Shown here: piece after piece, positions 15,376 through 53,492 of the stretch
Numbering within the stretch: the first letter of the stretch is position 1
Layout: each line of letters begins with the position of its first letter
Source of the DNA: an uncultured Pseudomonadota bacterium
Lineage (GTDB): Bacteria; Oederibacteriota; Muellerivitia; Muellerivitales; Muellerivitaceae
NCBI GenBank assembly: GCA_963836235.1
Contig: CAWIIP010000001.1
Location: forward strand, 384,001-448,000
Direction of reading: 5' to 3'
DNA length: 64,000 nt
Translations under genes and position numbers: made by a program
Notes under the pieces: generated by a model
Seen by the model: the letters and a program-made list of their open reading frames with translations, nothing else
Databases searched by the model: none
Told to the model about the DNA's origin: nothing

Positions 15376-15403
15376 TGTTCCTTTTGGGTCCCCGTGGTGG
15401 ACA
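15376..15403 (+). repeat. 28-bp palindromic site, copy 1
   Basis: TGTTCCTTTTG-GGTCCC-CGTGGTGGACA (left arm degenerate). Confidence 0.7.
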
Positions 15404-15500
15404 ACCCCGGATTCGTTCAATTACCCGCCGCCAAAATCCATGGAATGTTCTCGAGAGCATTTTGGACCCGCGAGGCGCCCAAGCCCGGCTCCGTCAAACC

Positions 15501-17144
15501 CTATTGGGGTTTCCCTGTTTCCGGACCGCCCTTATCCCTTTTGTATTCCTTGAGCTTCCGGTAAAGCGTCGCCACACCCATTCTCAAGAGATCCGCCGCT
15601 TTTCTCCGGTTCCCGTCTGATCTTTCAAGGGCATCCAGGATGGAGTCTTTTTCCACATTCCATAAAGAACGGGGTTCTCCCGGGTCGGGGACAGGGGGCC
15701 TATCCATGAGCACCTCGGGGGGAAGATCGGTCACATCGACCCGGTGTGTCTTGGCCACCGCGACCGCCCGCTCCATGGCGTTGGCAAGTTCACGAACGTT
15801 ACCGGGCCAGTTGTACACGAGCAGACGGTCCACCGCCGGGACGGTCATGCCCTCCACGGCCCGTTTCATGTGGATAGCGGCCTCCGCCAAAAGGAGCCGT
15901 GCGAGCGGAAGGATGTCTTCCCGTCGTTTTCGGAGGGGAGGGACAGCCAACTCGACCACGTCCAGCCGGTAGAAAAGGTCCTCGCGGAACCTTTTTTCGG
16001 CAACCTCGACCCTCAGGTCCTTATTGGTAGCGCTTATGATGCGGACATTGATCGGACGGCTTTTGTTCTCCCCGACCCGCCTGACTTCCCTCTCCTGGAT
16101 GGCCCGAAGGAGCTTCACTTGCATGGGAAGGCTGATCTCACCGACTTCATCCAGCAAAAGCGTCCCGCCGTTGGCCGCCTCGAAGAGGCCCATCCGGTCC
16201 GTGGACGCCCCAGTGAAAGCCCCTTTGGCATGGCCGAAAAGTTCGCTCTCCAGGAGGGTGTCAGTGATGGCTCCGCAATTGACCGCGATAAAAGGGCCGT
16301 CCGAGTGAGCCGAATGGTCATGGACATAACGCGCCACCCTTTCCTTGCCCGTGCCGCTCTCGCCCGAAATGAGCACCGTGGAATCGATGGCCGCGATGGT
16401 CTTGGCCAATTCCATTAAATTGCGCATTTCGGGGCTCCGCGTCATGAGCTCCGAAGGGTCTTCCTCGATCTCCGCCAGTTTTTCCAGTTTGCGGGTCTTT
16501 TGGCGCAATTCATTTTCCGTTCGCTTCAACGTGCTGGCGACGTTCCGAAGGGTATCGTCGATCACCACCCGCTTATAAACCACCAGATCGTCCTGGACCT
16601 CATTGCCCCACTCTTCCTCGGCCTTGACGATCACATGGCAGGCCGCATCGCCCTTTCCCATGCACTTGTCCTCCAACGCGTACATTTCCTTGCCCTTGAC
16701 GAAACTCATATAACCGCTGATGAGCCCGCAAAGGTTCCAGCAAACGGGTTTATCCGACCGGCCCTTCAGGAGAAGATGCTGCTCGGCTTCGTAGGAAATG
16801 CGCCAAGTGCCTCCCTCAGGTCCAAAGCCTTCGGGGCTTTTAGGGTCCAGCATGAAAAGGCCTTGGAGGGCCAGGATACGGAATCCGGCCTTTTGCCAAT
16901 CCTCGTCGCTGTCCCATTTGAACTTGCTCTTGAGGGTTTCGGCCAAGCGCTTGCCGTGGATGTAGCCGTAATGACTGAGAATGCCCCGAGCCGTCCTCTC
17001 GCTGAAGGTATCGATGAGTTCTTTACGAAGCAATCCCTGGGACACAGCATCGAATATCAAGGCCCTTTGCCCGGCGAATTGGACCACTCCCCCACTGGGG
17101 TCTGTTTTCAAGAGTTTTGTTAAGGTCAGATCATCCACGCGCAT
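15501..17144 (-). CDS. Sigma54-dependent activator with XylR-N/V4R-type sensory domain
   Basis: EDKCMGKGDAACH (V4R-like), GESGTGKE, GAFTGA, WPGNVREL, C-terminal Fis-type HTH. Confidence 0.92.
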   Translation of the reverse strand: MRVDDLTLTKLLKTDPSGGVVQFAGQRALIFDAVSQGLLRKELIDTFSERTARGILSHYGYIHGKRLAETLKSKFKWDSDEDWQKAGFRILALQGLFMLDPKSPEGFGPEGGTWRISYEAEQHLLLKGRSDKPVCWNLCGLISGYMSFVKGKEMYALEDKCMGKGDAACHVIVKAEEEWGNEVQDDLVVYKRVVIDDTLRNVASTLKRTENELRQKTRKLEKLAEIEEDPSELMTRSPEMRNLMELAKTIAAIDSTVLISGESGTGKERVARYVHDHSAHSDGPFIAVNCGAITDTLLESELFGHAKGAFTGASTDRMGLFEAANGGTLLLDEVGEISLPMQVKLLRAIQEREVRRVGENKSRPINVRIISATNKDLRVEVAEKRFREDLFYRLDVVELAVPPLRKRREDILPLARLLLAEAAIHMKRAVEGMTVPAVDRLLVYNWPGNVRELANAMERAVAVAKTHRVDVTDLPPEVLMDRPPVPDPGEPRSLWNVEKDSILDALERSDGNRRKAADLLRMGVATLYRKLKEYKRDKGGPETGKPQ

Positions 17145-17324
17145 GTTCGTTCTCCTTTCAGGGAAAACGCAGGAAGCTTTCTTTACCATTACTTTACAGC
17201 TTGCGGAAAATCGCAATATGAGCGTGGTTAGGTTAAACGGTTTGTTTACAAAGGCTTTCCAGATCGGTCGCGGAATGCTTCTCCAGACCGGAAAAACCCT
17301 ATTTAATCCAACAGATTTTCCTTT

Positions 17325-17352
17325 TGTCCAATCAGGGTCCCCGTCATGGACA
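17325..17352 (+). repeat. 28-bp palindromic site, copy 2
   Basis: TGTCCAATCAG-GGTCCC-CGTCATGGACA. Confidence 0.85.
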
Positions 17353-17361
17353 AGTAACGAC

Positions 17362-17538
17362 TTAAGGTTTATAGACGAGCATCGCTTTGATATACATGGC
17401 GACGGCTCCCACGATCCAGCCCGCGAAAAATATAGCGACGGGCTTGGCTTGCTCTATACCGCCCTTGAGCCAAAATCCGCCGAGAACGATGGCCATAATG
17501 ATGGCCACAGCGATCCCCCAACTGACGAATGGATTCAT
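17362..17538 (-). CDS. Small two-TM membrane protein (58 aa)
   Basis: GGAGG RBS, two hydrophobic segments, tightly bracketed by sites 2 and 3. Confidence 0.7.
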   Translation of the reverse strand: MNPFVSWGIAVAIIMAIVLGGFWLKGGIEQAKPVAIFFAGWIVGAVAMYIKAMLVYKP

Positions 17539-17558
17539 CTTGTAACCTCCAATTTTGT

Positions 17559-17586
17559 TGTCCAATGCGGCTCCCCGTCCTGGACA
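17559..17586 (+). repeat. 28-bp palindromic site, copy 3
   Basis: TGTCCAATGCG-GCTCCC-CGTCCTGGACA. Confidence 0.85.
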
Positions 17587-17676
17587 AGGTTATCATCTGG
17601 TTTAATGGTCATTCCAGTTCAATTTCACCTTCGTTGAAAACAACGGTTTTCTTCCGAAATGCCCCTCAAAATAAAA

Positions 17677-17707
17677 AAACCCCGGGATTAAAACCCATCC
17701 CGGGGTT
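17677..17707 (-). terminator. Probable rho-independent terminator
   Basis: AACCCCGGGAT...ATCCCGGGGTT hairpin followed by a T-run on the minus strand. Confidence 0.6.
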
Positions 17708-18109
17708 CCGCTGGAAGAGGATTCTTTTTCTTAACACATCGGATTAAATCCCCTGGCACCTTCACGGTGCCCTATCAAGAATCTCTTCCAATTATTATCT
17801 TAAGCCTTTTGGTGGATTTGTTTATGAGCCAAGACATCCAGGCCTTTATATTTATTACGTTTTTTCGTAAAAGGCTTGTGTGTCGTTTCTGCCGGTTTTG
17901 AATTTTTTCGGCTGAAAGGGGATTTTTCACCTTCCAATGCCCATAACAACAGTTTTTCCAAAAAAGACCCGAACCTGCTAACCGCACGGTCAACCACGAT
18001 CTACCTCCCGTTAGTACCGGCTTGATCTTCAAGCCCGAAGACGTTACCGCAAGGGTTTGGGACAGCCCGATTCAGGCTGTGTAGGACAAAGCAAATTGTT
18101 TATTGAGGC

Positions 18110-18280
18110 TTATTTAGAGGCCCCGACTAATTCCTTCTCCGCTTCCACCCAATCACAGATCTCATCGTTGTTCGGGCAGCCACGGTTCTGCCAGTGGTAA
18201 TAAGCCGCCACTTCCAGTTTTTCTTGAGATACTTCTTTTTCTGACTTCACAACCGCATCCTTTTCTTTTGTCTTTGCCAT
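18110..18280 (-). CDS. DUF2934-like small protein
   Basis: LEVAAYYHWQNRGCP..DEICDWVEAEKEL; AGGAG RBS. Confidence 0.8.
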   Translation of the reverse strand: MAKTKEKDAVVKSEKEVSQEKLEVAAYYHWQNRGCPNNDEICDWVEAEKELVGASK

Positions 18281-18362
18281 AAAAATTCTCCTTATTTTAT
18301 TTATTAAATTTACAAGAAATAGCGTGAAAGGTTTATGACCAATCTCACGTTTCAATCTATTT

Positions 18363-19058
18363 TCAAACCTCATCTATTCGATCCACCAAGTCATTCACGT
18401 TCTTAACCGTGATTTGACCATGAACTGATCTTATCAACCCCACATCCTCAAGTCGGATACAGGCCCGAATGCAGGTTTCCACTGCTGTCCCAGCCATTTC
18501 CGCGATCTCCTTGCGGGTCAAAGGAATTACATTTCCGAATTCCCGCACCATTTCCACCAGGACATGCAAAATTCGTTTTTCTGCGCTTTCCTGTGAAAAG
18601 GTCTGCATATCCTTCGACCAGCGTAGGAGTTTAGAAATTTTAGAAAGGATATCCCGTGCCATTTGTGGGTATTTCCCAATAAGAGTCTGGAAAAATTGAA
18701 TAGGAAACGAAATCACCGTTGCATCGGTTTCGGCCAGGCAATGAAAGCCGTATTCACCTCCGCTAAATGCCGAAACCCCAAACATCCCATTAGCTCCCAC
18801 CATGCAAATGGTGTTGGATTGGCCTTCCGGTGAGTGGTGGATCTCCTTTACGTGGCCTTCCTTTACAAACCAGATGGATTCCGCCAGGTCATTTTCCAAA
18901 AAAATGGATTCCCTTTTCGCGTATTTTTTCTCAACCATGTTATGTTCGATTTCCCAAAATGCATCGGAAGGGATATTTTTGAAGAAGGACATCATCGAAA
19001 GAGGGCTCTTTTTTGTCCCATGAAAAGCAATCGGCCTGGTTTTCGTCATTGTCAGCAT
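18363..19058 (-). CDS. Crp/Fnr family transcriptional regulator
   Basis: cNMP-like domain (FVKEGHVK) plus HTH LTRKEIAEMAGTAVETCIR. Confidence 0.92.
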   Translation of the reverse strand: MLTMTKTRPIAFHGTKKSPLSMMSFFKNIPSDAFWEIEHNMVEKKYAKRESIFLENDLAESIWFVKEGHVKEIHHSPEGQSNTICMVGANGMFGVSAFSGGEYGFHCLAETDATVISFPIQFFQTLIGKYPQMARDILSKISKLLRWSKDMQTFSQESAEKRILHVLVEMVREFGNVIPLTRKEIAEMAGTAVETCIRACIRLEDVGLIRSVHGQITVKNVNDLVDRIDEV

Positions 19059-19102
19059 GTCATCCACCTCTTTCCAGTTGTGATACTGATCCTTGTCATA
19101 GA

Positions 19103-19117
19103 GCAAGTGTTGCGCCA
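19103..19117 (-). promoter_or_regulatory. Sigma54 promoter upstream of the crp/fnr gene
   Basis: Minus strand TGGCGC-AACAC-TTGC, near consensus TGGCAC-N5-TTGC. Confidence 0.65.
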
Positions 19118-19314
19118 GTCAAGGAAGGTTAAAAAGAGGTGTTTTATGAACTTTAAAATCCATGAAGGGTAACACTATGGTCTGCCTGCTATGGCGGTAT
19201 AGCCATAGGGAAATGAAATATAGTCGGATGGGAAATTTAATTGATTATCAAAATGAGAGCTAAGTTACACACCCGCATACAAGGGTTATCCACAAAGGGA
19301 AGGTCAAATTCGTT

Positions 19315-19342
19315 TGTCCACTGCGGGTCCCCATCGTGGACA
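19315..19342 (+). repeat. 28-bp palindromic site, copy 4
   Basis: TGTCCACTGCG-GGTCCC-CATCGTGGACA. Confidence 0.85.
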
Positions 19343-19451
19343 ATGAATTTAACACTTTGATACTAAATTTTTAAACTCACGAACTAGTTCAGGGAGATTT
19401 CCAGGGTCAAGTTCGAAGCCGCCTGACACCTGGTGAGGTCGCGTCAAGTTT

Positions 19452-20779
19452 CAGGGTGTAAAAGTTACGGGCGCCTAAATCAAGCAGCCTGACTTTTGAC
19501 CTCCTTGCGACTGGTGTGGACTTTGATTCTGTTCCATCGTTCTTGTTGAGCCGTTGCCACTCCCCACAAAAGTTTCACCAAAGTTCTTTCGTTCGTCATT
19601 CCGCCTACCGGTTTGAACCTCCGTCTCAATTCTCGGTTAAACCGCTCGATCAAGTTTGTACTCCTGAGTAGCATCCAATCTTTGTGGTCCTGTTGAAAGA
19701 AGACAGTGTACTTCTCAAAGTCTTTTTCAGTCATTGCCACCGCCTTAGGGTAGGCTTTTCCCCATTTGGCTTTGAGTTCACCCAAAGCTATTAGCGCCCG
19801 GTTCTTGCCGTCGGCCCAATAAACTTTCGTGAAGTCTTGTAGAAATTCTTTTTGGTCCTTGGCCGCTACCCTCACGCGGACGTTTCTCATCTTGTGAATG
19901 ACACATAATTGGTGGGGAATCGACAGTTTTTCTTCCACCGCCGCCAGAATGCCTGCGTGGGCGTCCGATACCACCAGCTTCAAAACCTTTCGATCCAAGC
20001 CTCGTGAAAGCAGATCCTCCAACAAGGCACTCCAACTCTCTTTGCTCTCTGAGTCTCCCACCACAAAACCCAAGAAATGGCGGTGCATTGTTCCATCCAC
20101 CCCAATGGCCACCAAAAGGGCTTGGTTTTCATAGCTTCCCATGCATTTCAAGGAAACATACAAAGCGTCCAGGTACAGGTATTGAATTCCTTCCGCCAAG
20201 GGCCGTTTTTCCCACGCAACCACCATTGGCTCCAGGTCTTGTGTCCATTGGCTGACCTGATTGGCCGTATGTTTGGTCCCGAACACCCCATTTAATTCCT
20301 CGGCCACCGATCGGGTTGAGGCACCTTTGATCCAAAACCTTCTTCCCAAATGAGCCATCAAATTCCCGGTCCCTTCCCGCAAAGCCTCAAGGGTACGGGG
20401 AATAAATCCACCCTCCCTCAAGACGGGCTTGTTCAACTTCAAGCGCCCAAAAGGCCCCGGCAAAACCATTTTCCGAAACCCATTGCGGTAAACCCCTTCG
20501 GATGGACAAGCCGCGGAAGACCTGCGGCCCAAAAACTCGTCCCGTTCTTCCTTCAAACGGGTATTTAAAGCATCTTCCAGCAAACCATTAATCTCTTGTT
20601 CAACCCAAACCCGAAGATCCCCAGCGTCCAATACAGCCTGAACTTGGGCTTTCACCTTTTCCTTTACCAGCACCTTCAACGACTGTTGTATATTCTTCAT
20701 GGGCGTAACGACCTTTCACAAAAAGGGATATGGCGTCTTCAATCAACACCATGTTACGCCCGCTTCTGTTTACACCCTG
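19452..20779 (-). mobile_element. IS256-family insertion sequence (no target-site duplication seen)
   Basis: Terminal inverted repeats CAGGGTGTAAA..CGGGCG / CGCCCG..TTTACACCCTG enclosing the transposase. Confidence 0.85.
19480..20700 (-). CDS. IS256-family (Mutator-type DDE) transposase
   Basis: YRNG, YLYLDA, VVSDAH.G, QLCVIHKMRN, STNLIERFNRELRRR. Confidence 0.93.
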   Translation of the reverse strand: MKNIQQSLKVLVKEKVKAQVQAVLDAGDLRVWVEQEINGLLEDALNTRLKEERDEFLGRRSSAACPSEGVYRNGFRKMVLPGPFGRLKLNKPVLREGGFIPRTLEALREGTGNLMAHLGRRFWIKGASTRSVAEELNGVFGTKHTANQVSQWTQDLEPMVVAWEKRPLAEGIQYLYLDALYVSLKCMGSYENQALLVAIGVDGTMHRHFLGFVVGDSESKESWSALLEDLLSRGLDRKVLKLVVSDAHAGILAAVEEKLSIPHQLCVIHKMRNVRVRVAAKDQKEFLQDFTKVYWADGKNRALIALGELKAKWGKAYPKAVAMTEKDFEKYTVFFQQDHKDWMLLRSTNLIERFNRELRRRFKPVGGMTNERTLVKLLWGVATAQQERWNRIKVHTSRKEVKSQAA

Positions 20780-21291
20780 GAATCATACGGAACCTGATTA
20801 TCATTAACTGAATCTGCCCTAGCTAAACTTGTCGGAGTTGGCGTTTTTTTCAAACAATTAGTTTTAACACAATTAATTGCGAATAGTTCGGAATCTCTCA
20901 AATCTTCTAAAATACACTTACCAAGGCCAAAAACGTCTTCTGTCAAGCATTTAAGAAATTGTGTTGCAAAAAACAATCCCGCTTTGGCTTCGCAAAATGT
21001 TACGCAATTAACAGTTGGTACTGGGGTGAAGGTTGAAATTATTGAAACGGTAAATGTCGCCGTAGCCGTTAAGGTAAAAGTTTCCGTTGCCGTCGGTGTA
21101 AAGGTAAAGGTTGGAGTTGGAGTAAATGTCGGTGTTGGTGTATCGGTAATAGTCGATGTGTCGGTAAAAGTCGGCGAAATGGTCGGAGTGTTGGTCGGCG
21201 GTGTCGCAGTTACAGTTGGTGTTGCTGGCGTGGCCGATAAAGGCCCACATAAATTGTAAGTACCACCGGTGAATCCAAATCCTGTGTCAAT
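20780..21291 (-). pseudogene. 5'-truncated fragment of a Thr/Pro-repeat, Cys-containing extracellular-type protein
   Basis: TPTPTFTPTPTFTFTPTAT tract; the frame begins directly at the 37-bp repeat with no start codon and runs into the IS256 end. Confidence 0.6.
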
Positions 21292-21328
21292 GTTGCACAC
21301 TATCCTTTTTGCGACAGGCATGTGCAGG
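21292..21328 (-). CRISPR. CRISPR-like 37-bp repeat, cas-distal copy
   Basis: Minus strand CCTGCACATGCCTGTCGCAAAAAGGATAGTGTGCAAC, identical to 47426-47462. Confidence 0.8.
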
Positions 21329-22281
21329 TTCCTTTTTTCGGGCGGGATGAATTTGAAACCTAGTTTTCGATAAACCTCTTCCTCCGTTTTTCCGGCGACG
21401 TATTTCCCCGATTTGTCATATAACCCGTACTCGTTCAACTTGAGCCCCTTGCTGATGGCCATTTTTCGCAACGTTATGTTGTGTTGTTTATTCCCCGTGA
21501 AATAAATCATGGCCGCGCCGAAGGACTCCCCGCCGAACACCCGCAAATCCACCTGCAGGCCGTTATCCAGTATCACCTCCGACTTCTTGGGGCCGTGGAG
21601 GACGACCTTTCGCACGATAGGAAGGGTCGTAAAGGCTTCCATGACCGCTTCCGGCTGATCGGAGACTACTAGGAGGTCGATATCGCCGATGGTTTCCTCC
21701 TTGCGCCGCAGGGACCCTACCAATTCCACCCGTTCCACCTCCCCCATTCGCTTTAAGGCCAAAAGGATTTTATTGGCCGAGGGCAGGACTTCCTCCCTCG
21801 GGTGGCGGTCCTGGTGGGCTTTTTTAATCCCCAAGTTCGCGGCGATCTTCTCCTCGCTTTGGGGGCCAAAACCCCGGATGGCGGCCACCTTGTGTTCCAT
21901 GACGGCGGCCTTCAGGTCGGACGGGGAATGGATGCCATGGTGGTAGAGGCTCTCAGCTCGGTAGGGCCCCAAGCCCGGCACTTTCATGAGGGCCGTTATC
22001 CCCGTAGGCAGGGTTTTTTTCAGTTTTTCGAACTCGGGGATTTTGCCGGTCTCCAGGAATTCGACGATTTTCTTTCCCAACCCCTCGCCGATTCCGGGTA
22101 TTTCTTCCAGGCCCTTAAGCCCGCCTTTATTGTAAATTTTCCGGACGTCCTCCCCCAAAACCTGTAAAGAACGGGCGGCGGCGCGGTAGGCGCGCGGCTT
22201 CCACTCCACGTCCTCGATTTCCAGGATTCCGGCCATGTCATTGAAGATTTCGGCGATTTCACAGTTGGTGCTGGTTGTCAT
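21329..22281 (-). pseudogene. polX: DNA polymerase X (PolX core), interrupted at the repeat; no PHP domain
   Basis: AYRAAA, IPGIG HhH, GSLRR..ETIGDIDLL, YFTGNKQHN, LNEYGL, FIPPEKR; the frame continues through the repeat with no stop. Confidence 0.85.
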
Positions 22282-22285
22282 GGGA

Positions 22286-23035: not shown

Positions 23036-23069
23036 AGAATCCGCCTCTTTTTGGTTTTCCCTTTTCCTA

Positions 23070-23765: not shown

Positions 23766-23816
23766 GGTTTTCCTCCTGAAAAATTAATTACAGCTATCGC
23801 TTTGCCCCGGGCGGCC

Positions 23817-25706: not shown

Positions 25707-25718
25707 GGAAGACCTCCC

Positions 25719-26675: not shown

Positions 26676-26705
26676 GAAAAGCCTCCCCGCGAAATTAATT
26701 CCGTC

Positions 26706-27557: not shown

Positions 27558-27581
27558 CGGCCCGCCAAGAGGCCTAACGGA

Positions 27582-42334: not shown

Positions 42335-42425
42335 ATCCCCAAATGATTAACAAGTTATCCACAATTTTATCCTCTTAATCCCCAATCATGCAGGCCGGAA
42401 CGATGCCCTCCCTTTGGCGCCATCC

Positions 42426-45177: not shown

Positions 45178-45411
45178 TCAGGCAGATCAGTCACGTCTAC
45201 CTTGTACCACAGAACATGAACGGCTTTTAAATAAGGTACGAGAATATCGCTTTCGTCCTTTCGTTCAGATTGGAGCATTTTTCCAAGTTGTATCGAATAT
45301 TCAAACTTGATCTTTGTTTTTTGCCAATGACTTGGAACCCGATCCACCCATTCAACGGACGAACTTTTATATTCGGGATAGGGTTTGTATCTGTCTTGAC
45401 TTGGATGGGTG

Positions 45412-46122: not shown

Positions 46123-47171
46123 AGATCGCCCAATCCGTATTCCTCAAGCCAATCATCCATCTTGGCTTTCTCCAACTTGGAAAAGACCGATTGTCCTTCC
46201 TGCCGATCAACAACAACAATATCGGCTGGCTCAAACTGGTTGACAAGTCCAACGGACTGGGTAGATGCGATGATTTGTGTTTTAGTGGAAGTGCTTTTAA
46301 GAAGATCAGCGAGCAAAGCAACGGCGTAGGGATGAAGGCCAAGTTCGGGCTCATCTAGCAAAATGACGGATGGTAGTTCCGGTTGCAACAATAGTGTGGC
46401 CAGACAGATGAACCTTAAGGTACCGTCCGATAGGGTATGGGCGTTGAAATAGTCGTCCGAACCCTTTTGGTGCCATTCCAAAAGAATTTTTCCCTTATTC
46501 AACTTGGAGGGGCGCAAAAAGAAATCATCAAAGAATGGTGCCGCCAATCGCACGGTTTCAACGATATTTTTATAATTGCCTTTATGGCGTTCCTGTAGGA
46601 AGTAAAGGAAAGCCGCGAGGTTTGACGCATCGGGCCTGAAAACCTCGTTATCATCTATTTCTCCCGTTTGTTTCATCTTGGAGCTTTCGCTTGTGTCATG
46701 AAAGTGGTAGACACGCCAGCTTTCCATGTTTTTTAAAACATGATTGACGGTCGCTTTTTGCTTAGCCAAAGTATGTAGTTTTGTTTCCTTGTGCCCTTCA
46801 CCGAGGCCTTCCTCATATGGGCGTTTATACCCGGCACCTTGAAAATAGGCGGATTCTTCCAGGAAAATCAGCGAATCATCCGTTGAGGGGCCCAATTTGC
46901 AGGAATATCCATTCGGATTGAAATCACAATGTATAAAAATTTCATTGGTTATTTTGGAGCCGAAGTACAAGAACGTGTTCGCGCCGCCTGATTTACCGAC
47001 AAAAACCTGGAGGTTTTTTAGGACAATTTGGTTTAAAAGCTTAAAGAGAGAAATAAAATTTGACTTCCCTGCCCCGTTGGGACCAATGAGAACATTTAAG
47101 GGTCTTAGTTTCAAATCCATATCTTTTATGGATTTGAAACCTTGAACTTTAACGCTTTTAAGTGCGTGCAT
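46083..47171 (-). CDS. AAA_21/ABC-type ATPase
   Basis: GFKS, IGPNGAGKSN, LSDGT, LLDEPE.GLHP. Confidence 0.88.
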   Translation of the reverse strand: MHALKSVKVQGFKSIKDMDLKLRPLNVLIGPNGAGKSNFISLFKLLNQIVLKNLQVFVGKSGGANTFLYFGSKITNEIFIHCDFNPNGYSCKLGPSTDDSLIFLEESAYFQGAGYKRPYEEGLGEGHKETKLHTLAKQKATVNHVLKNMESWRVYHFHDTSESSKMKQTGEIDDNEVFRPDASNLAAFLYFLQERHKGNYKNIVETVRLAAPFFDDFFLRPSKLNKGKILLEWHQKGSDDYFNAHTLSDGTLRFICLATLLLQPELPSVILLDEPELGLHPYAVALLADLLKSTSTKTQIIASTQSVGLVNQFEPADIVVVDRQEGQSVFSKLEKAKMDDWLEEYGLGDLWEKNILGGRPTH

Positions 47172-47247
47172 GATAATCTCCGGGATTCGATGCGTTTATT
47201 ATAACCCAGCTCTTTGGGTGCTTTAAACAAATCGGCTTTTGAAATTT

Positions 47248-47424
47248 TTATAATTCCTTTAATTCCTCAGCGATCTCGGCTTCCAACTGTTTAATCTCCG
47301 CCTCAATGACATCCAAGGGTCTTATGGTCTGATACTTGTAAAAATGCCGAGTGAAGGGAATTTCATAACCTATCTTGGTCTTACCATCGTCAATCCAGGC
47401 ATCCGGCACGTGTGGCAGAACTTC
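47248..47424 (-). pseudogene. hsdM: 3' fragment (last ~58 aa) of a type I R-M methyltransferase
   Basis: Manual translation EVLPHVPDAWIDDGKTKIGYEIPFTRHFYKYQ..RPLDVIEAEIKQLEAEI; begins 1 bp after the 37-bp repeat, no start codon. Confidence 0.85.
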
Positions 47425-47425
47425 A

Positions 47426-47462
47426 GTTGCACACTATCCTTTTTGCGACAGGCATGTGCAGG
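47426..47462 (-). CRISPR. CRISPR-like 37-bp repeat, cas-proximal copy
   Basis: 22 bp downstream of the cas2 stop; TGCACA...TGTGCA terminal dyad and TGCAAC 3' end; identical to 21292-21328. Confidence 0.82.
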
Positions 47463-47484
47463 AGCCTGCAATTATTGGTGTTTT

Positions 47485-47820
47485 TCACCGTTCCGCCGAA
47501 TTCGGCGTGATTTGGATAAGTTCAAACGCAGTTTCAATGTCGACATCATCTTTCTTAGAACTAAGCGTACCACCGAAAACCGAATCTTCAAAGCACGACC
47601 GACAGAGCGTACTGATAAAAAACTTTTCGGTCTTCTTTGCGAAAGCCCCCTTGAATTTATTCTCGAGTTTTTCCCGTTCTTTTGAATACAATTTTCCGAT
47701 ATACATATTCCGGAAAACCGGCTTGAGACCATAATTCTTGCACCACAGAACCGCCTTGTCCCGATGCCGCCAGTCGCGCGTTTCCCACGATACTAGGGTG
47801 ATGGCATTGAAATTGTTCAT
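47485..47820 (-). CDS. cas2: Divergent Cas2-like protein
   Basis: 111 aa, ATGA overlap with cas1; Cas2-like pattern (R.K....KNYGL.....Y.G.L...E ... LC..C) but SWET in place of YDI. Confidence 0.7.
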   Translation of the reverse strand: MNNFNAITLVSWETRDWRHRDKAVLWCKNYGLKPVFRNMYIGKLYSKEREKLENKFKGAFAKKTEKFFISTLCRSCFEDSVFGGTLSSKKDDVDIETAFELIQITPNSAER

Positions 47821-48827
47821 GATATCGAAAAAAGTTTTTCCGCACGAAACGGGTTGTACTTGTCCTCCTTTTCGACAAAGTGACGTGCCAACGCCCTAAT
47901 CTGGTTATCTATGATCTGCTTAAGAGTATATTGTTTCCCCCGCCATGCCGTCGTTTCATTCAACCGCCTCATGATCGCCCCCACCACGACGCTTTTTCCC
48001 TCAGGCGATAACAGATATTGCCCAACCGCGGTTTTTTCAAAATATTTCCGTTGGCTCAGTTTCTTTTCTATGAAAAGCGGGAAAAGCACCGAGTCGACGA
48101 TTGGTACGCGGAATTCTTCGACAAGATCGAGAACGAGGGCAGGCTTACCATAGCGTTCACTGTGGTAGAGGCCGAGATATGGATCAAGACCGACGTAAAG
48201 GCATGCCCGTTCGACTTCATTGTAAAGGATGCCGTAACCATAATTCAGTACGCTGTTAAACTGGTCCCTGCCTTGTGGTTTTCGGCCCGGGAATCTATAG
48301 AATTTTTTTAACCCGCTGAAATATTTGTCCGCGATGTATCCTTCCGTACCAAGGAGTTGCTCCTTGCCTTTCTCCGAACACGGGACATTGTCCAAGACAT
48401 CAAAAAGGGTCTGCGCTTGTAAGAGCTCGGTCCCCACATCCTTTTTATATCGGTACGCGAGATATCGGAGTAGATCGAGCTGATTAGCGCATTTGCCCCG
48501 CACTAATTCTTTTGCGATTTTGAACGATCGCTCAAGCGAAGTTGACGCTTCCAGTTGCGCTTTACGAAGACTCGCCAACCCTTTTGGTTCGCTTGAAAAT
48601 AGTCTTCCGATGGGCTTGCCAAAAGAACCGAGATAGACGATATCAACATCGTGCTCAATCGCGAGCTGAACTGCGTGAGTCGTGAGCGAGGCCGGCCGCA
48701 GTATGACTATTTTCTCCAGTCTGTGGATTGGGTATTCTTTTTTCTCTTTAACTTTCGGAAAAGAAAGGACGATGCGCTCACCATTTACGCCGATCTTGGT
48801 ACCGTAAGTATCAATAAGCAAGTCCAT
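47817..48827 (-). CDS. cas1: CRISPR-associated integrase Cas1
   Basis: LLGTEG..A..YF, D.FNS.LNYGYGIL, GLDPY.G.YH, LVLDLVEEFR; catalytic E/H/D-E positions present. Confidence 0.93.
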   Translation of the reverse strand: MDLLIDTYGTKIGVNGERIVLSFPKVKEKKEYPIHRLEKIVILRPASLTTHAVQLAIEHDVDIVYLGSFGKPIGRLFSSEPKGLASLRKAQLEASTSLERSFKIAKELVRGKCANQLDLLRYLAYRYKKDVGTELLQAQTLFDVLDNVPCSEKGKEQLLGTEGYIADKYFSGLKKFYRFPGRKPQGRDQFNSVLNYGYGILYNEVERACLYVGLDPYLGLYHSERYGKPALVLDLVEEFRVPIVDSVLFPLFIEKKLSQRKYFEKTAVGQYLLSPEGKSVVVGAIMRRLNETTAWRGKQYTLKQIIDNQIRALARHFVEKEDKYNPFRAEKLFSIS

Positions 48828-48901
48828 GTGATCTGCCCCCCAAATTTCGTAAACCATCTTTGTACGGAAGATGCCTGGCTACCATTATCCATCATTTTCG
48901 T

Positions 48902-48929
48902 TGTTCACGAAGGGTCCCCGCCGTGGACA
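48902..48929 (+). repeat. 28-bp palindromic site, copy 5
   Basis: TGTTCACGAAG-GGTCCC-CGCCGTGGACA. Confidence 0.85.
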
Positions 48930-48968
48930 GTGTTTTCTACGCTTCTCCTTGTTCAAGACTCCTCCGGC

Positions 48969-51632
48969 CTACCGAACCCCGAATTTCCTAATAAACCAGG
49001 TTTTCACAAATTGGGTGAGCACGCAATAGCACAATAAGGTGAGGGCGATAAACCCAAAATAATGAAGGGGCAAGGGCATGAGGCCGACCTTGGAGGCTAA
49101 GGGTGAAAAAGGGAAATAAATGCCGACCGCCATGACGCATAGGGTCGTCAAAGCCAACGCCGGCGCTGCCCGGCTTTGGATGAAAGGAATCTTGTTGGTG
49201 CGGATCACGTGGACGATTAGGGTCTGGGTCAGAAGACCCTCCACGAACCAGCCGGATTGAAACAAGGACTGTCTTTCGGGGCTATTGGCCCCGAAGAAGA
49301 ACCACATCAAGGCGAAGGTGGTGTAGTCAAAGATGGAGCTGATGGGGCCAATGAAAAGCATGAAGCGGCCGATATCGGCGATTTCCCATTTGCGAGGCCG
49401 GGAAAGGTATTCCTCGTCCACCCGGTCCAAGGGGATGGCCGTCTGGGAAACGTCGTAAAGAAGGTTCTGAATAAGAATTTGCACCGGCAACATGGGAAGA
49501 AATGGCAGAAGAGCGCTGGCCCCCACCACGGAAAACATATTGCCGAAGTTGGAACTGGCCCCCATCTTGATGTATTTGATGATGTTGCCGAAGACCTTGC
49601 GACCCTCCAAAACCCCATCCGCCAACACTAGCAGGCTTTGTTCCAGCAAGATGATGTCGGCGGATTCTTTGGCGATGTCCACCGCGTTGTCCACGGAGAT
49701 TCCTACGTCCGATGCCCGCAGGGCAGGCGCGTCGTTGATGCCGTCCCCTAAATACCCGACCACATGGCCCTTCTGATGCATGGCTTTGATGACGCGTTCT
49801 TTTTGGGAAGGGGAAAGTTTGGCGAATACGTAACAGCCCTCCACGGCCTCGGCCAGTTCCCCGTCCCCCATGGCCTCAATTTGCCCGCCCAATAAAATCT
49901 TTTCCGCGTCAATGCCCACCTGGGAACAAACCATACGGGTCACCGTTTCATTGTCCCCGGTGAGGACCTTCACCGCCACGCCATGATCCTTCAAGAGGGC
50001 TACCGCTTCCTTGGTGGTTTCCTTCGGTGGGTCCAGGAAAGCCAGATAGCCGAGCAACACCAAGTTGCATTCGTCTTTCATCGAATAGGCAGGGTGATCG
50101 GTGGGCATTTCCTTATAGGCTACGGCAATGACTCTTAGGCCTTCCCCGTTCAAATTTTCGGGGATACCCTTCAGGCCCTTTCGCGTTACTTCGTCTAAGG
50201 GAGTAAGCACCCCGTCAATTTCCACTTGGTCACAGACGCTGAAAACTTCCTCAAGGGCTCCCTTGCAGATAAGAATGTCCCTTTTGCCTTCCTCCTCTAC
50301 GACCACCGACATGCGCCGACGTTGAAAATCGAAGGGGATTTCATCGACCTTCTTATAGTTGGCCTGGGGTTTCAAGGATTTTTCCAGATCCACAAAGGCA
50401 AGCACCGCCACGTCCAGGAGATTTTTCAAACCGGTTTGGTAAAAGCTGTTCAAGTAGGCATATTCGAGGGTTTTAGGGCTCTTGGAGCCGCGCGCGTCCG
50501 CGACTTTCAACAGGGCCACCTTGTTCTGGGTCAGGGTCCCGGTCTTATCCGTGCAAAGGACGTCCATGGCCCCAAAGTTCTGGATGGAATTCAGGCGCTT
50601 CACGATGACCTTCTTGCGGGACATCATCATGGCCCCCTTGGACAGGTTGACGGTCACGATCATGGGGAGCATCTCGGGCGTCAACCCCACGGCCACTGCC
50701 ACAGCGAACATGAAAGCCTCGAACCAATTGTGTTTTTCAATACCGTTGATCACAAAGACCAGTGGCACCATTACCAGCATGAAACGCAACATGAGGGTCG
50801 TGAATCGGTTTACTCCCGTTTCAAAGCTGGTAAGGACACGACGGCCCACCACGGATTTCGCCAAAGTGCCCAGATAGGTTTCGGCGCCGGTGCGGAGTAC
50901 TAAAGCTGTGGCAGTACCGCTCAAGATGTTGCTCCCCATGAAACAAAGGGTCGGCCATTCCAGGGGGGTGGCAGGAGAGGCTTCCAGGGGTGCCGCCGTC
51001 TTTTCCACCGGCAGGGATTCCCCCGTGAGGGCGGCCTGGCTGACAAAGAGGTCCTTGCAGGAGAGAAACCGCAGGTCGGCGGGAACCATGTCACCAGCGG
51101 CTAGGTGGAGAACATCGCCCGGTACTAAATTCTCGATGGGTTCCTCCAAGTTTTGAATCGGCTCGTCCCCACGACGGCGCAGGACCGTGGCCCTATTGGT
51201 CACCATGGCCTTGAGTTTTTCGGCGGCCTGGCTGGAACGGTATTCCTGGTAAAAGCCGAGAGTCACGCTGATGAAGGCCATCGCGGCGATCACGATTCCC
51301 CCCGCGAAGTCGTGTGTGAGGAAGGAAATGAGGGAAAGGACTCCCAAGAGTAGTGTGAAGGGAGTGCGGAAGTTACGGAACAGCTGTAGGTACCAGGGGT
51401 CGGGTTTTTCATGCACCACTAGGTTGGGTCCGTGAAGCTCAAGACGATGGCGGACTTGGCTTTCGGTGAGGCCCTCGGGCGAACTGTGCAGTTGCTTGAG
51501 TAACGCGGGAATATCAGCCTTTCCCATTTCCAAAAGAGAGGCGAGGGAAAGGGCCGCTTGGGCCTTCGCAGTTTCGCCTTTGAGCCTTTCCGGTTGCAAC
51601 AATCGGTAGAAATGGTTTTTTAATAAGGGCAT
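48969..51632 (-). CDS. mgtA: Magnesium-translocating P-type ATPase
   Basis: TGES, TPEMLP, DKTGT, GDGIND, SSNFGNMFSV. Confidence 0.94.
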   Translation of the reverse strand: MPLLKNHFYRLLQPERLKGETAKAQAALSLASLLEMGKADIPALLKQLHSSPEGLTESQVRHRLELHGPNLVVHEKPDPWYLQLFRNFRTPFTLLLGVLSLISFLTHDFAGGIVIAAMAFISVTLGFYQEYRSSQAAEKLKAMVTNRATVLRRRGDEPIQNLEEPIENLVPGDVLHLAAGDMVPADLRFLSCKDLFVSQAALTGESLPVEKTAAPLEASPATPLEWPTLCFMGSNILSGTATALVLRTGAETYLGTLAKSVVGRRVLTSFETGVNRFTTLMLRFMLVMVPLVFVINGIEKHNWFEAFMFAVAVAVGLTPEMLPMIVTVNLSKGAMMMSRKKVIVKRLNSIQNFGAMDVLCTDKTGTLTQNKVALLKVADARGSKSPKTLEYAYLNSFYQTGLKNLLDVAVLAFVDLEKSLKPQANYKKVDEIPFDFQRRRMSVVVEEEGKRDILICKGALEEVFSVCDQVEIDGVLTPLDEVTRKGLKGIPENLNGEGLRVIAVAYKEMPTDHPAYSMKDECNLVLLGYLAFLDPPKETTKEAVALLKDHGVAVKVLTGDNETVTRMVCSQVGIDAEKILLGGQIEAMGDGELAEAVEGCYVFAKLSPSQKERVIKAMHQKGHVVGYLGDGINDAPALRASDVGISVDNAVDIAKESADIILLEQSLLVLADGVLEGRKVFGNIIKYIKMGASSNFGNMFSVVGASALLPFLPMLPVQILIQNLLYDVSQTAIPLDRVDEEYLSRPRKWEIADIGRFMLFIGPISSIFDYTTFALMWFFFGANSPERQSLFQSGWFVEGLLTQTLIVHVIRTNKIPFIQSRAAPALALTTLCVMAVGIYFPFSPLASKVGLMPLPLHYFGFIALTLLCYCVLTQFVKTWFIRKFGVR

Positions 51633-51857
51633 GGATTAAACTCGCTTTCCAAAACGTCCTCAACACTGACCAATTCTACTCCCCCTTCTGGCCGCACCGA
51701 AAACTCATTACCTTTCGAAATTGGGGCGACGTCAAGTCTACGCAATCAGGAAAGTAACGGCCGTTTCCCGATCTGCTTCTAAATATGAATATGGGTGTGG
51801 CTAAGGCCGTCGGGGACGTTGTGGGCGAAGCGGCGAGGAAGGCTTTGGGTCTTTAGA

Positions 51858-51885
51858 TGTCCACGACGGGTCCCCATCGTGGACA
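51858..51885 (+). repeat. 28-bp palindromic site, copy 6
   Basis: TGTCCACGACG-GGTCCC-CATCGTGGACA. Confidence 0.88.
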
Positions 51886-51934
51886 ACCTTTAAAACAGAA
51901 AACCTTAATTAAGCGGTTAATAAAATCCTATTTT

Positions 51935-52569
51935 CTAAAATCGAAACTGAAGATAAAAATTAGGAACAACGATAGACGTGTTGTTGGTCGGAGAATAAGA
52001 ATCCCAGGAGTAATAGGGCGGGGAAAAGACCGCGTAACCGGGAACAGAATTGGTTCTGAGAAAGCTTTTCATGTAATCCATGGTTAAACCGACACCCAAA
52101 TTGGAAAGGATGAAATATTCGATGCCCAAGCCAACAAGTAAATCATGTTCCGTTGTGTTTGCATTTGGATAAACCCCGTTTTCGTAATAATTCACGGAAT
52201 TCGCGGACGTGGTTCCGCTGATGAAATCGTAGCCGAAATGAAGGTAGGTTTGAAACAAGTTGAACACCCGTCTTTTGCGGGTGCTGAGATTATATCTTCC
52301 TTGAAGGGTAAGCCTGAAAAAGTCGACTGAGCCTCCAAAGGATGAGTCAGAGGTATTGAAGGAGGTCCCGCGGAGACTTCCCAATGGGGATCGATCAGGT
52401 AACCGAGGGTGATCCCGGTAAGCAGTGGAAAACCGTAATCCAGCTCAATTAAGAACTGCTGTTTCCCGGATAAGTCATTTCCGCCATTGGAGTCAAAATT
52501 ACCACCTGAACAAAACCCCACCGGAATCAGTATCAATAAAAAACAAAAAATACTTTTTTTCATAATCAC
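51935..52569 (-). CDS. Outer-membrane beta-barrel-like protein, frameshifted near 52365
   Basis: Signal peptide in ORF 52192..52569; amphipathic strands and C-terminal YLQFRF in ORF 51935..52384. Confidence 0.6.
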
Positions 52570-52586
52570 ACCTTTCTAATATCGCC

Positions 52587-52614
52587 TATTCACGACGGGG
52601 CCCCGTCACGAATA
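52587..52614 (+). repeat. 28-bp palindromic site, copy 7
   Basis: TATTCACGACG-GGGCCC-CGTCACGAATA (compensated outer arms). Confidence 0.75.
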
Positions 52615-52635
52615 GGTTGGTTTGATAAAAAATAT

Positions 52636-52663
52636 TGTTCCTTCAGGATCCCCGTCGTGGACA
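52636..52663 (+). repeat. 28-bp palindromic site, copy 8
   Basis: TGTTCCTTCAG-GATCCC-CGTCGTGGACA. Confidence 0.75.
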
Positions 52664-52700
52664 GCGACCCCTCATCCATATCCATCATAATTTCACGGAG

Positions 52701-53105
52701 TTAACCGCCAAGCACTTCCAAAAATTCCCGCGGGCTCAACACTTTTATGCCGTGGCACTTGGAATGTGGAAAATGCTTTAGATTGCCACTGACGAGGTAG
52801 GCGTTCTCTTGTTCCCGGGCGGCCTCCAAAAAAGCCTCATCATGCGGGTCGGGCAGCCCCGCCGGCGGGAAAGGCTGGACGGAACGGATTCCCTCGCTCC
52901 GAATCCGCAAAATCAAGAAATGAACAGCTTGCGTTTCAAAACCAAACTCAGGCCTCGACAGCACTTTTTCATATTCCCCAATGATATCTTCGTTATAAAC
53001 CGGCTGAAACCCGCCTTCGTTCATGAAATCCAGCAAACGGGCGCAGGGTCCGGTTGCGGTTAAAAGGCCGGAAACCAAAACATTGGTGTCGAGCACCACC
53101 TTCAA
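52701..53105 (-). CDS. PIN-domain toxin
   Basis: VVLDTNVLVS, DPHD..FLEAA, LVSGN.KHF. Confidence 0.88.
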   Translation of the reverse strand: MKVVLDTNVLVSGLLTATGPCARLLDFMNEGGFQPVYNEDIIGEYEKVLSRPEFGFETQAVHFLILRIRSEGIRSVQPFPPAGLPDPHDEAFLEAAREQENAYLVSGNLKHFPHSKCHGIKVLSPREFLEVLGG

Positions 53106-53389
53106 CGGCGTTCGGCCTTCCTCGTTTTGGCCACAACCGCGTCAACTTGTCCCATCTTCCATCGGTCAAGTCCCTTTGCCTTTGCCTTGGCCCTCATATG
53201 GTCAATGGCTAAACGGGCCTTCGCCTGGTGCCAGGCCTCCAAGGTTTCTTCCAATTCCAGTTCCCCAACCCGGCAAAGGAGGGCCATCGGTTTTCCGTTA
53301 TTAGTGACCACTACGTCCCCTTGTTGGTCCAATTCCTTCCAGACCATGCCCGATTTGCCTTTCAATTCCCTCACCGAAATAAATTTCAT
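53102..53389 (-). CDS. Phd/YefM-like antitoxin
   Basis: ISVRELK...VVVT.NGKP.A; overlaps the toxin start. Confidence 0.85.
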   Translation of the reverse strand: MKFISVRELKGKSGMVWKELDQQGDVVVTNNGKPMALLCRVGELELEETLEAWHQAKARLAIDHMRAKAKAKGLDRWKMGQVDAVVAKTRKAERR

Positions 53390-53464
53390 GGCGTCTCCTT
53401 ATCGTATAACAATATGATACTCAATCGTGACACGCTTTCAAGTCCATAAATTAGTGGCTGGGAT

Positions 53465-53492
53465 TGTCCACGAAGGGTCCCCGTCGTAGACA
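53465..53492 (+). repeat. 28-bp palindromic site, copy 9 (border with core genes)
   Basis: TGTCCACGAAG-GGTCCC-CGTCGTAGACA. Confidence 0.85.

Follow-up and report, generated by a model that had tools for sequence, protein, structure and literature searches.

Co-oriented 28-bp palindromes that very probably bound mobile gene cassettes, and a short serine recombinase as their candidate enzyme

Palindromic sites of 28 bp in the window (the whole 64-kb stretch of DNA that was analysed) and elsewhere in its genome very probably bound independently mobile, co-oriented and mostly single-gene cassettes, and gene content breaks at these sites. Recombination is read here from sequence comparison rather than from direct observation. 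That a site-specific recombination system for cassettes crosses over at the palindrome, with a short serine recombinase (SR) as its enzyme, we put at slightly better than even.

All nine palindromes reported by the initial annotation were located at their positions in the window, and all are intergenic:

15376–15403, plus strand: site 1; left half TGTTCCTTTTG of the recombinase-proximal type, consensus core and right arm
17325–17352, plus strand: site 2
17559–17586, plus strand: site 3; core GCTCCC
19315–19342, plus strand: site 4
48902–48929, plus strand: site 5; a relative is 98.6% identical on the left up to the site and unrelated to the right
51858–51885, plus strand: site 6; differs from the consensus at one position
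52587–52614, no strand: copy 7; divergent symmetric palindrome with a GC centre
52636–52663, plus strand: site 8; left half TGTTCCTTCAG, core GATCCC
53465–53492, plus strand: site 9; ends the array

The full consensus (≤3 mismatches) has five matches in the window and none in shuffles, while the right arm (≤1 mismatch) has ten matches against 0.71 expected. At these thresholds no additional site occurs elsewhere in the window, in agreement with the reported lack of sites in the housekeeping block and the glgP-atp operon. An asymmetric core in one orientation is present in eight of the nine sites (GGTCCC in five, plus the variants GCTCCC and GATCCC), and copy 7 is symmetric, both as annotated. 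Copy 7 shows seven differences from the consensus and occurs a single time in the genome; its membership in the site family is doubtful. The right arm had been described as better conserved than the left, and this holds over 391 distinct sites. The intervals between the sites comprise the following:

15404–17324, minus strand: cassette with a sigma-54-dependent activator (ORF 15501–17216)
17353–17558, minus strand: cassette with one small ORF (17362–17565; 67 aa from TTG or shorter)
17587–19314, minus strand: cassette with a Crp-like regulator (18363–19106), a DUF2934 protein (18110–18373) and an 85-aa ORF (17775–18032)
19343–48901, both strands: block of 29.6 kb between sites 4 and 5
48930–51857, minus strand: cassette with an Mg2+-translocating P-type ATPase (MgtA; ORF 48969–51632; 1251 bits)
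51886–52586, minus strand: cassette with a 149-aa ORF (51935–52384)
52664–53464, minus strand: cassette with a PIN toxin (52701–53105) and a Phd/YefM-like antitoxin (53102–53389)

The annotated pattern of one minus-strand module per interval applies to most intervals and fails for 19343–48901, which has genes on both strands and is not a simple cassette. This block contains unrelated IS256-family and Mutator-family transposases, PolX, FtsH, SDR, PAP2, CFA synthase, ADH, an AbiEii-like ATPase and Cas1. Cas1 is thus confirmed from the cas1-cas2 module that had been proposed there, and the supposed cas2 beside it gave no Pfam match; the window contains no CRISPR array. Gene calls for the sigma-54 activator, crp with DUF2934 (37 bits) and mgtA agree with the annotation. 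The toxin-antitoxin call stands for the PIN toxin, the antitoxin being a weak match below the cut-off (23.1 bits), and the supposed beta-barrel protein (ORF 51935–52384) likewise matches the OMP beta-barrel only weakly and below the cut-off (21.2 bits). No Pfam family matched the small ORF at 17362–17565, and a stretch homologous to its cassette is present in the loci of two relatives. The MgtA cassette has an 88%-identical copy between sites in a relative (locus L042). Beyond site 9 lies a co-directional gene for a 1180-aa 2-oxoacid:ferredoxin oxidoreductase-like protein (53582–57124), reading towards the array.

Genome-wide, the motif is clustered rather than scattered. The genome, G000, has 76 sites, 69 of which fall in 13 arrays that together span about 73 kb (1.8% of the genome). 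All 56 pairs of neighbouring sites less than 6 kb apart are co-oriented, at odds with repeats lying in both orientations between core genes. ORFs in the arrays total 18,142 aa on one strand versus 2,803 aa on the other. Their cargo comprises toxin-antitoxin (TA) pairs, GNAT and HAD proteins, regulators and many proteins without a Pfam match. Sites are spaced 49–4747 bp apart with ORFs in between, which rules out a CRISPR array with its spacers of 25–50 bp. Within its phylum the motif is restricted to one family (f1). Among 31 genomes of this family, ten have at least 20 sites and 21 have fewer, four of them being motif-free; the number reaches about 80 per genome (80 in G018). The genome source is an uncultured soil bacterium.

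Homology between cassettes ends at the sites. A 1273-bp cassette occurs at C2:1195352–1196624 and at C4:57529–58801 with 100% identity, and this identity stops at the outer edges of both sites. Many homologous cassettes are common to different genomes, again with homology ending at sites. Locus L015 is 98.6% identical to window positions 47672–48930 up to site 5 and then continues with other cassettes. In locus L044, a C5 flank (99.6%) is joined via a site to a cassette that is found in a C4 array in G000. Both loci place gene-content breaks in relatives exactly at the sites. As to the excised circles that the annotation had proposed as a check, no circle junction was seen, and the only read-level joint comes from a single low-depth soil-metagenome contig, in which 7445 bp are missing precisely between sites C2:1193140 and C2:1200585, with only 20 nt shared at the joint.

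The point of exchange can be narrowed down within the palindrome. In informative pairs, left-arm variants follow the left flank and right-arm variants the right flank, which places the exchange at positions 14–17 (between 13|14 and 17|18). Among pairs whose outer context differs (10 left sites), mismatches number 29 at positions 1–13 versus nine at positions 14–28, a count in which one place enters three times as L005, L008 and L010 overlap. The consensus of the 391 distinct sites is a perfect 13-2-13 palindrome around an asymmetric TC, which is present in 375 of them; positions 11–18 are best conserved, and conservation around the site ends sharply at 30 bp. The interval 14–17 contains the TC and also fits a 6-bp overlap. 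The 11-6-11 geometry of the initial annotation therefore fits the sites without being forced by them, since 13-2-13 around TC can be read from the consensus equally well.

The initial annotation placed the recombinase outside the window. The only site-linked recombinase gene, however, is that of the short SR, of which the window contains a remnant 14 nt ahead of site 1:

15287–15361, plus strand: short SR remnant (last 24 codons and stop; tblastn 88% over 26 aa, E 9e-8, to the C-terminus of a relative's SR)

Spacer and half-site next to this remnant are as beside intact genes in relatives, and the same SR tail, spacer and site occur in L074, L045 and L132. A co-oriented site lies 8–34 nt past the SR stop in four of the five genomes with an intact gene; the fifth has a half-site 36 nt past the stop. 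The same gene-then-site arrangement is seen in four out of four remnants that keep or point to the SR 3' end, as well as in the window. The protein is conserved (275–283 aa, its length constant over 19 clusters; dN/dS = 0.08–0.16) and consists of a Resolvase domain (PF00239; 79.3 bits versus a cut-off of 23.3) and a Recombinase domain (PF07508; 52.7 bits), right after which the ORF stops. R18, S20, S21, D89, R90 and R93, which by homology we take to be the catalytic residues, are invariant in 20 sequences. Neither a coiled coil nor a zinc ribbon (PF13408) is present, and the short SR was rejected as a typical large serine recombinase on the latter ground and on its length (about 450–700 aa for the typical enzyme). 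To our knowledge, a serine recombinase with only Resolvase and Recombinase domains has no studied precedent. Its full-length relatives (484–595 aa) have no sites nearby: zero out of four full-length SR paralogue loci in the family carry one.

The distribution of the short SR follows that of the sites in part. It is restricted to family f1 within its phylum, and intact genes occur in five of the ten genomes with at least 20 sites versus none of the 21 with fewer. G000 has an intact gene at one of its 13 arrays and a remnant at one more. The array beside the intact gene is bounded by two halves of a different palindrome, as predicted for insertion into a primary site. Five site-rich genomes gave no Resolvase-domain match (G023, G021, G005 and G010, with 26–38 sites, and G016, with 18), and G018 has only an SR remnant and two small resolvases; sites in SR-less genomes look as well conserved as elsewhere. 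As only half of the ten site-rich genomes hold the short SR, its role as the recombinase is one that we infer. Several homologues lie on contigs of 0.9–1.5 kb, and L145 ends 22 bp past the stop. The gene may have been lost from site-rich genomes during MAG binning, which we offer as an excuse and not as evidence.

In the mechanism that we propose, the system would supply arrays on the chromosome with cassettes that are small, poor in promoters and mostly single-gene. A cassette would comprise a site's right half, a body, and the left half of the site that follows; the gene or genes of the body run against the direction in which the core reads GGTCCC. If two sites in direct repeat recombined, a circle with one hybrid site would be released and could re-enter at any site. 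The short SR gene stops a few bases short of the first array site; its product would attach to both 13-bp half-sites and cleave at the asymmetric TC in the middle, and this TC would give the site its polarity. Arrays without an SR gene may be served in trans or may be relics like CALINs. More broadly, we give even chances to a 'serine integron', i.e., a second, independently evolved gene-capture platform. Its enzyme (~277 aa) would be a large serine recombinase minus zinc ribbon and coiled coil, encoded next to a primary half-site. It would insert, excise and shuffle single-gene cassettes via a minimal double-stranded palindrome of 28 bp, cut at TC. If true, such a platform would occur across one entire family of the uncultured candidate division FCPU426, with as many as ~80 sites per genome.

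A less probable reading, though one with a real share of the probability, is that a different enzyme, a tyrosine recombinase or one of another kind, acts on the same arrays at an 11-6-11 site. The SR gene would then be no more than a preferred neighbour or target, with an attB-like primary site in its 3' end. The site geometry suits a tyrosine recombinase, the crossover interval at positions 14–17 fits one with a 6-bp overlap equally well, five site-rich genomes are devoid of a serine recombinase, and G000 encodes eight tyrosine recombinases. Among the latter, a family of ~370-aa integrases increases in copy number loosely with the number of sites over the 31 genomes, and one paralogue, 88–90% identical across genera, is encoded at a distance of 5.4 kb from the largest C2 array. 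The correlation is broken by G021 (36 sites, one ~370-aa integrase) and G044 (nine sites, none). A tRNA gene lies no more than 100 bp from four of the six paralogues, as with island integrases, while the other two have none within 3 kb; no paralogue recurs at array ends. The seventh non-Xer tyrosine recombinase, outside this family, adjoins a tRNA gene. The tyrosine-recombinase cassette array put forward in the initial annotation was thus not substantiated, as none of these seven flanks an array. IntI is not found in G000 either (best TIGR02249 score 40.9 bits versus a cut-off of 265). Moreover, each short SR 3' end has a site while most arrays are without SR, which is the pattern of a platform gene and not of a random target.

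It is far less probable that the palindromes act as hairpins of a REP-like or regulatory kind (terminator, mRNA stabiliser or operator), with the boundaries produced by homologous recombination between repeats. The sites are intergenic, they can form a stable RNA or single-stranded DNA hairpin (−22.9 kcal/mol, z = −4.9), and the genome has three Y1 transposase genes. However, these genes lie at least 10 kb from any site, the hairpin lacks the T-run of a terminator, and exchange in the informative pairs never falls in the conserved outer blocks. Inner arm positions 7–10 and 19–22 are complementary in only 50–71% of the 391 sites; covariation thus does not preserve the hairpin. The strict co-orientation and the clustering in 1.8% of the genome also argue against this reading. 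Known REP/BIME elements with their RAYTs resemble the sites as abundant intergenic palindromes of ~30 bp; the sites described here differ in being clustered, co-oriented, not next to Y1 transposases and in delimiting exchangeable genes.

Hardly credible is the use of the palindromes as Xer/dif-like (chromosomal pdif-type) sites by the host chromosome-dimer resolvase: a symmetric 28-bp site would be in keeping with a lone Xer-like recombinase, but the xer gene has its own 11-6-11 palindrome (GTTCGGTATAT-CTGTAA-TTATACCGAAC, 2 bp upstream of its start), whose arms share nothing with the motif and which occurs once per genome in seven of the 31 genomes (≤2 mismatches), next to xer in five of the seven. 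The gene is core (30 of 31 family genomes, including all four motif-free ones), and the only copy in G000 sits at the gene-orientation switch. The sites are unlike this dif-like palindrome of the host, and the Xer/pdif reading of the annotation was not supported. In pdif modules, successive sites alternate in orientation; here, all sites in an array are in direct orientation. Shared with Acinetobacter pdif (XerCD) are the 28-bp sites that bound small gene modules in a host with no need of an element-borne enzyme. Chromosomal dif-like modules are reported from Acinetobacter, a precedent for this reading (PMC12907356).

The cassette system with the short SR as its candidate enzyme shares traits with several known systems; among the titles and abstracts covered for the motif, the taxon and the concept, no published description of it was found. 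Staphylococcal cassette chromosome (SCC) elements use the large serine recombinases CcrAB; they are tandem elements of tens of kb at the 3' end of rlmH, with their own ccr genes and attB/attS pairs. Serine-recombinase cassette insertion in tandem beside the 3' end of a gene would be common to both, whereas the cassettes described here measure 0.2–3 kb, lack a recombinase gene and have a single palindromic site in common. Small serine recombinases act at crossover sites (res site I, hix, gix) with inverted half-sites of 12–13 bp around an asymmetric 2-bp centre, much like the half-sites around TC described above; here, the candidate enzyme has a Recombinase domain instead of a C-terminal HTH, and no accessory sites or enhancer were seen. 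The attC sites of integrons are imperfect palindromes of 55–140 bp with R''/L''-L'/R' boxes and extrahelical bases. Measured against this layout as we know it, the 28-bp near-perfect palindromes, with conservation ending at 30 bp and a perfect 13-2-13 consensus, show no sign of it, and the window has no Rfam match. Given the lack of IntI in G000, the system is not an integron; its candidate enzyme belongs to the serine and not the tyrosine superfamily. Positioned at their 3' side, the SR gene is convergent with the cassette genes instead of divergent, and so cannot supply an integron-like Pc promoter. Like integrons, the arrays consist of compact, co-oriented, promoterless and mostly single-ORF cassettes that are gained, lost and shuffled at recombination sites, with TA pairs, acetyltransferases and unknowns as cargo. 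Some arrays are flanked on one side by a recombinase gene and its divergent primary half-site and many have no such gene, and in one relative group II introns lie beside the sites, a further likeness to integrons.

The initial annotation had placed nine 28-bp palindromes, read as 11-bp arms around a 6-bp core (GGTCCC), between 15376 and 53492 of the window, and each was confirmed at its position. The full consensus (≤3 mismatches) matches the window five times, against none in 100 shuffles, and the right arm (≤1 mismatch) matches ten times where 0.71 matches are expected. The core points the same way in eight sites, as had been reported, while the membership of copy 7 (52587), which is unique in the genome, is doubtful, given its seven differences from the consensus and its symmetric GC centre. 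This GC-centred palindrome (52587-52614) lies 21 bp ahead of site 8 and carries the inner part of the motif in its arms, but not the outer TGTCCA. A scan of the whole assembly (G000; 3.97 Mb, 5 contigs, C1-C5, with the window at G000:C1:384001-448000) returned 76 sites at ≤7 mismatches. The motif is clustered rather than scattered, as 69 of the 76 fall in 13 arrays with a joint span of approximately 73 kb. Neighbouring sites less than 6 kb apart are co-oriented in all 56 pairs, and conservation stops abruptly at 30 bp, i.e., the 28-bp site with a flanking T and A. Within the family, the motif occurs in 27 of 31 genomes (G000 included), at 0 to 80 copies each. It is present once in the single genome from a sister family and was not found in 15 searched genomes from the other families of the phylum. 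Among the matches listed, public records with the motif are labelled mainly as candidate division FCPU426; one is labelled Firestonebacteria and a few others proteobacterium or uncultured bacterium.

Most intervals between two sites are almost completely taken up by a single ORF or by a toxin-antitoxin pair. Non-overlapping inter-site ORFs add up to 18,142 aa on the strand that runs against the GGTCCC reading and to 2,803 aa on its complement, and an IS66 insertion accounts for part of the smaller figure. Elements of this IS66 family are inserted in cassettes of two arrays (C2:1203253-1204677 and C5:1083-4421), with 99.9% identity between the two copies over 1494 bp. A Pfam scan of 30 ORFs from the two largest G000 arrays revealed HAD hydrolases, a GNAT acetyltransferase, a peroxiredoxin, a pirin, a LOG-like protein, an OMP beta-barrel, an NHL-repeat protein, AraC plus hemerythrin, and the toxin-antitoxin pairs BrnT/RHH and MazE/PIN; for 11 of the 30, no Pfam family was found. 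In the three arrays examined for it, a co-directional gene lies upstream, from which the array could be read through. A recurring array-end gene was also considered as a component of the system. Large proteins of 530-784 aa, which match ParB_N only weakly, adjoin arrays in nine loci, but their position and orientation are inconsistent and they were taken as cargo or neighbours. They include:

C1:368632-370986, ParB_N-like large protein (G000)
C2:1205629-1207404, ParB_N-like large protein (G000)
C5:39555-41432, ParB_N-like large protein (G000)
L081, L110 and L038, loci of relatives with ParB_N-like large proteins

Most gene calls of the initial annotation within the window were upheld, the interval 19343-48901 being the one misdescribed. 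It had been presented as a cas1-cas2 module, yet it is a 29.6-kb block coding in both directions, in which PolX, FtsH, Cas1 and other genes accompany two unrelated transposases, and no Pfam match was obtained for the putative cas2. The transposases are of the IS256 and Mutator families without detectable DNA similarity to each other; a CFA synthase and an AbiEii-like AAA ATPase are encoded as well, and the Cas1 stands alone. Two small DUF2934 proteins occur in the window, at 14965-15183 and, in the cassette of the Crp-like regulator, at 18110-18373.

There is good support for the arrays and for cassette mobility at the centre of the palindrome. Two copies of a 1273-bp unit (C2:1195352-1196624 and C4:57529-58801) are 100% identical, and the identity ends at the outer edges of both sites. 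When 258 intervals, each running from one site to the next in G000 or in a relative's locus, were compared, many homologous pairs (75-100% identical) were seen to start and end their homology at the sites in unrelated contexts. Gene-content breaks between relatives likewise coincide with sites. One relative's locus (L015) follows window positions 47672-48930 at 98.6% identity through site 5 and then continues with unrelated cassettes where G000 has mgtA. Another (L044) follows a flank on C5 at 99.6% up to a site and then carries a cassette that sits in a C4 array of G000. Moreover, a soil-metagenome contig joins position 4149 of locus L001 to 11595 with 20 nt common at the joint, and the 7445 bp skipped are the exact distance between the sites C2:1193140 and C2:1200585, this being a single low-depth contig from a run that may not be independent of the assembly. 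The read runs cover only small shares (0.19, 0.14 and 0.05), as short contigs, so that depth and uncovered parts are uninformative, and other joints were set aside for short sides or positions off the sites.

Homologous intervals in different contexts also indicate where within the site the exchange falls. In the 100% identical pair G0C4_856661 and L053_1016, differences are confined to positions 7-10 of the left site and position 28 of the right one. For L032_4324 and L095_4352, with 100% identical bodies, the left sites differ at positions 5, 7, 9, 12 and 13. G0C4_135627 and L096_3282 (96% identical) have a rare left arm of the right-hand site in common and differ from position 18 on. Consequently, the left half of a site goes with its left neighbour and the right half with its right neighbour, which places the exchange between positions 13|14 and 17|18. 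Mismatches were pooled over pairs with differing outer context, where the rows from L005, L008 and L010 represent the same place counted three times:

Left sites (n = 10): 29 mismatches at positions 1-13, 9 at positions 14-28
Right sites (n = 11): 7 mismatches at positions 1-13, 11 at positions 14-28

Part of this result is forced by the centre being the block of highest conservation; no exchange fell within the equally conserved outer blocks. The consensus of 391 distinct sites is a perfect palindrome with 13-bp arms around a central TC, which is present in 375 of them, and conservation is highest at positions 11-18. As TC is the only asymmetry, it alone sets the orientation that all arrays obey. 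Arms of 13 bp around an asymmetric dinucleotide are the layout of a serine-recombinase crossover site, and the same geometry is compatible with the 11-6-11 reading.

Clustering of the ORFs around sites in 117 loci yielded a short serine recombinase with Resolvase and Recombinase domains. Intact copies occur in five of the 31 genomes, namely in five of the ten with at least 20 sites versus none of the 21 with fewer. The G000 gene and the remnant in the window are:

C2:163827-164663, short serine recombinase of 278 aa; the first site of its array starts 34 nt past the stop
Window 15287-15361, remnant of such a recombinase (last 24 residues); a 14-nt spacer and the unusual half-site of site 1 follow, as in G042

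One of the DUF2934 genes (14965-15183) lies just upstream of this remnant. In relatives, the stop-to-site gap is 8 nt (G022) or 14 nt (G042 and G045), and in G001 a half-site lies 36 nt past the stop. A site also follows, at matching distance, each of the remnants in G042 (two), G018 and G046, whereas none lies near any of the four full-length paralogues (512-570 aa). Across 19 database clusters (71-86% identity) the protein measures 275-283 aa and ends just past the Recombinase domain, lacking the zinc-ribbon domain. Active-site residues are invariant and dN/dS is 0.08-0.16. A split large serine recombinase was rejected, as a genome search found the C-terminal half nowhere else. Judged from these sequence features, the short form is probably a real, functional gene; its AlphaFold model is mediocre (pLDDT 67.2, pTM 0.42). 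Metagenome relatives at ≤62% identity, like those in other families of the phylum, are large serine recombinases of the ordinary kind and lack the motif. A metagenome scan gave 79 of the former, nearly all of them full-length or cut short by a contig end and none with the motif, as well as one orthologue of the short form, whose contig stops 22 bp past the stop codon.

The array beside the G000 recombinase has a half-site at its left end and a near reverse complement of it at its right end (11 of 13 positions), and the two halves together form a palindrome other than the motif. Such halves are expected if cassettes entered a pre-existing primary site by conservative central exchange. They are readable as a pair in G000 alone, as the recombinase-linked contigs of relatives end inside arrays. 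The right half of the site at C1:370995-371022 and the recombinase-proximal left half of site 1 (15376-15403) are almost reverse complements of each other. The 28 kb in between, which include the first 15 kb of the window, may have entered as a single unit together with a recombinase platform. The recombinase gene converges on the cassettes and therefore gives them no upstream promoter.

The short serine recombinase is the best candidate for the enzyme acting on the sites, a predicted role that we consider as probable as not. The main rival is that another enzyme, possibly a tyrosine recombinase, acts on them. In its favour, no Resolvase domain was found in five site-rich genomes (G023, G021, G005, G010 and G016; 18-38 sites each). 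These assemblies are MAGs, from which a gene that often sits on very short contigs may be lost, yet its absence cannot be explained away in this manner. G018, with 80 sites, holds the remnant and two small resolvases. Against the rival, none of the tyrosine integrases recurs at array ends. Six of these (C2:1185612-1186715 and five paralogues) are approximately 370 aa long with 57-70% mutual identity, four of the six have a tRNA gene within 100 bp, and their copy number tracks the number of sites only loosely across genomes. The copy next to tRNA-Ser shows 88-90% identity across six other genera and is thus more conserved than the core Xer (59-78%), which suggests recent horizontal spread of this island. 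The arrays and the central exchange are well supported even if the assignment to the short serine recombinase fails. The initial annotation had proposed an undescribed tyrosine-recombinase array; the mobile cassettes stand, and the preferred enzyme, at even chances, comes from the serine superfamily.

A link to a XerC-like gene, or an identity of the motif with the chromosomal dif, had also been raised and is not supported, as a separate palindrome adjoins the gene of the sole Xer. This gene (353 aa; 168.9 bits with the XerC model, below the cut-off) belongs to the core set, with one copy in 30 of the 31 genomes, among them all four that lack the motif. Outside the window, an 11-6-11 palindrome at C1:329898-329925 (L003:3899-3926) lies 2 bp upstream of its start and is likely the chromosomal dif. 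Gene orientation on C1 switches here; GC skew alone is too weak a signal to place the terminus. With a search pattern too strict at the outer base, the xer-side palindrome (≤2 mismatches) was found once per genome in seven of 31 genomes, adjoining xer in five of the seven. A maintained hairpin was rejected too: a perfect copy is predicted to fold well, but complementarity between arm positions 7-10 and 19-22 is kept in only 50-71% of the 391 sites. No integron integrase is present (best whole-genome score 40.9 bits versus a cut-off of 265). Y1 transposases lie far from the sites, contrary to a REP/RAYT system, and solitary CRISPR repeats are dismissed by a window with neither a CRISPR array nor an Rfam match. 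By these features the arrays do not qualify as integrons, pdif modules, REP elements or CRISPR.

To our knowledge, integrons are the sole well-understood means of accumulating single-gene cassettes and rearranging them; they rely on one tyrosine-recombinase lineage and on folded attC sites. The arrays of this uncultured soil and peat phylum resemble them in genome architecture and type of cargo, while the short site is an unrelated one, of wholly double-stranded design, and the most likely enzyme is a serine recombinase from the other superfamily. Searches by motif, taxon and concept, covering the openings of abstracts, found no description of such arrays. If confirmed, cassette capture would have evolved at least twice, such arrays would escape current integron finders, and a very small recombinase with a 28-bp site would be available for study. 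In relatives, group II introns, matched by Rfam RF02003 and RF00029 and accompanied by an RT/maturase ORF of 529 aa, occur near the palindromic sites:

L064 2642-4569 and 7742-7878, group II introns
L076 6073-8000, group II intron
L091 1811-1947 and 3336-5263, group II introns
L041, group II intron

They start at a fixed 52 bp (four copies) or 13 bp (one copy) from a palindrome and recall the group IIC-attC introns, which target the attC sites of integrons.
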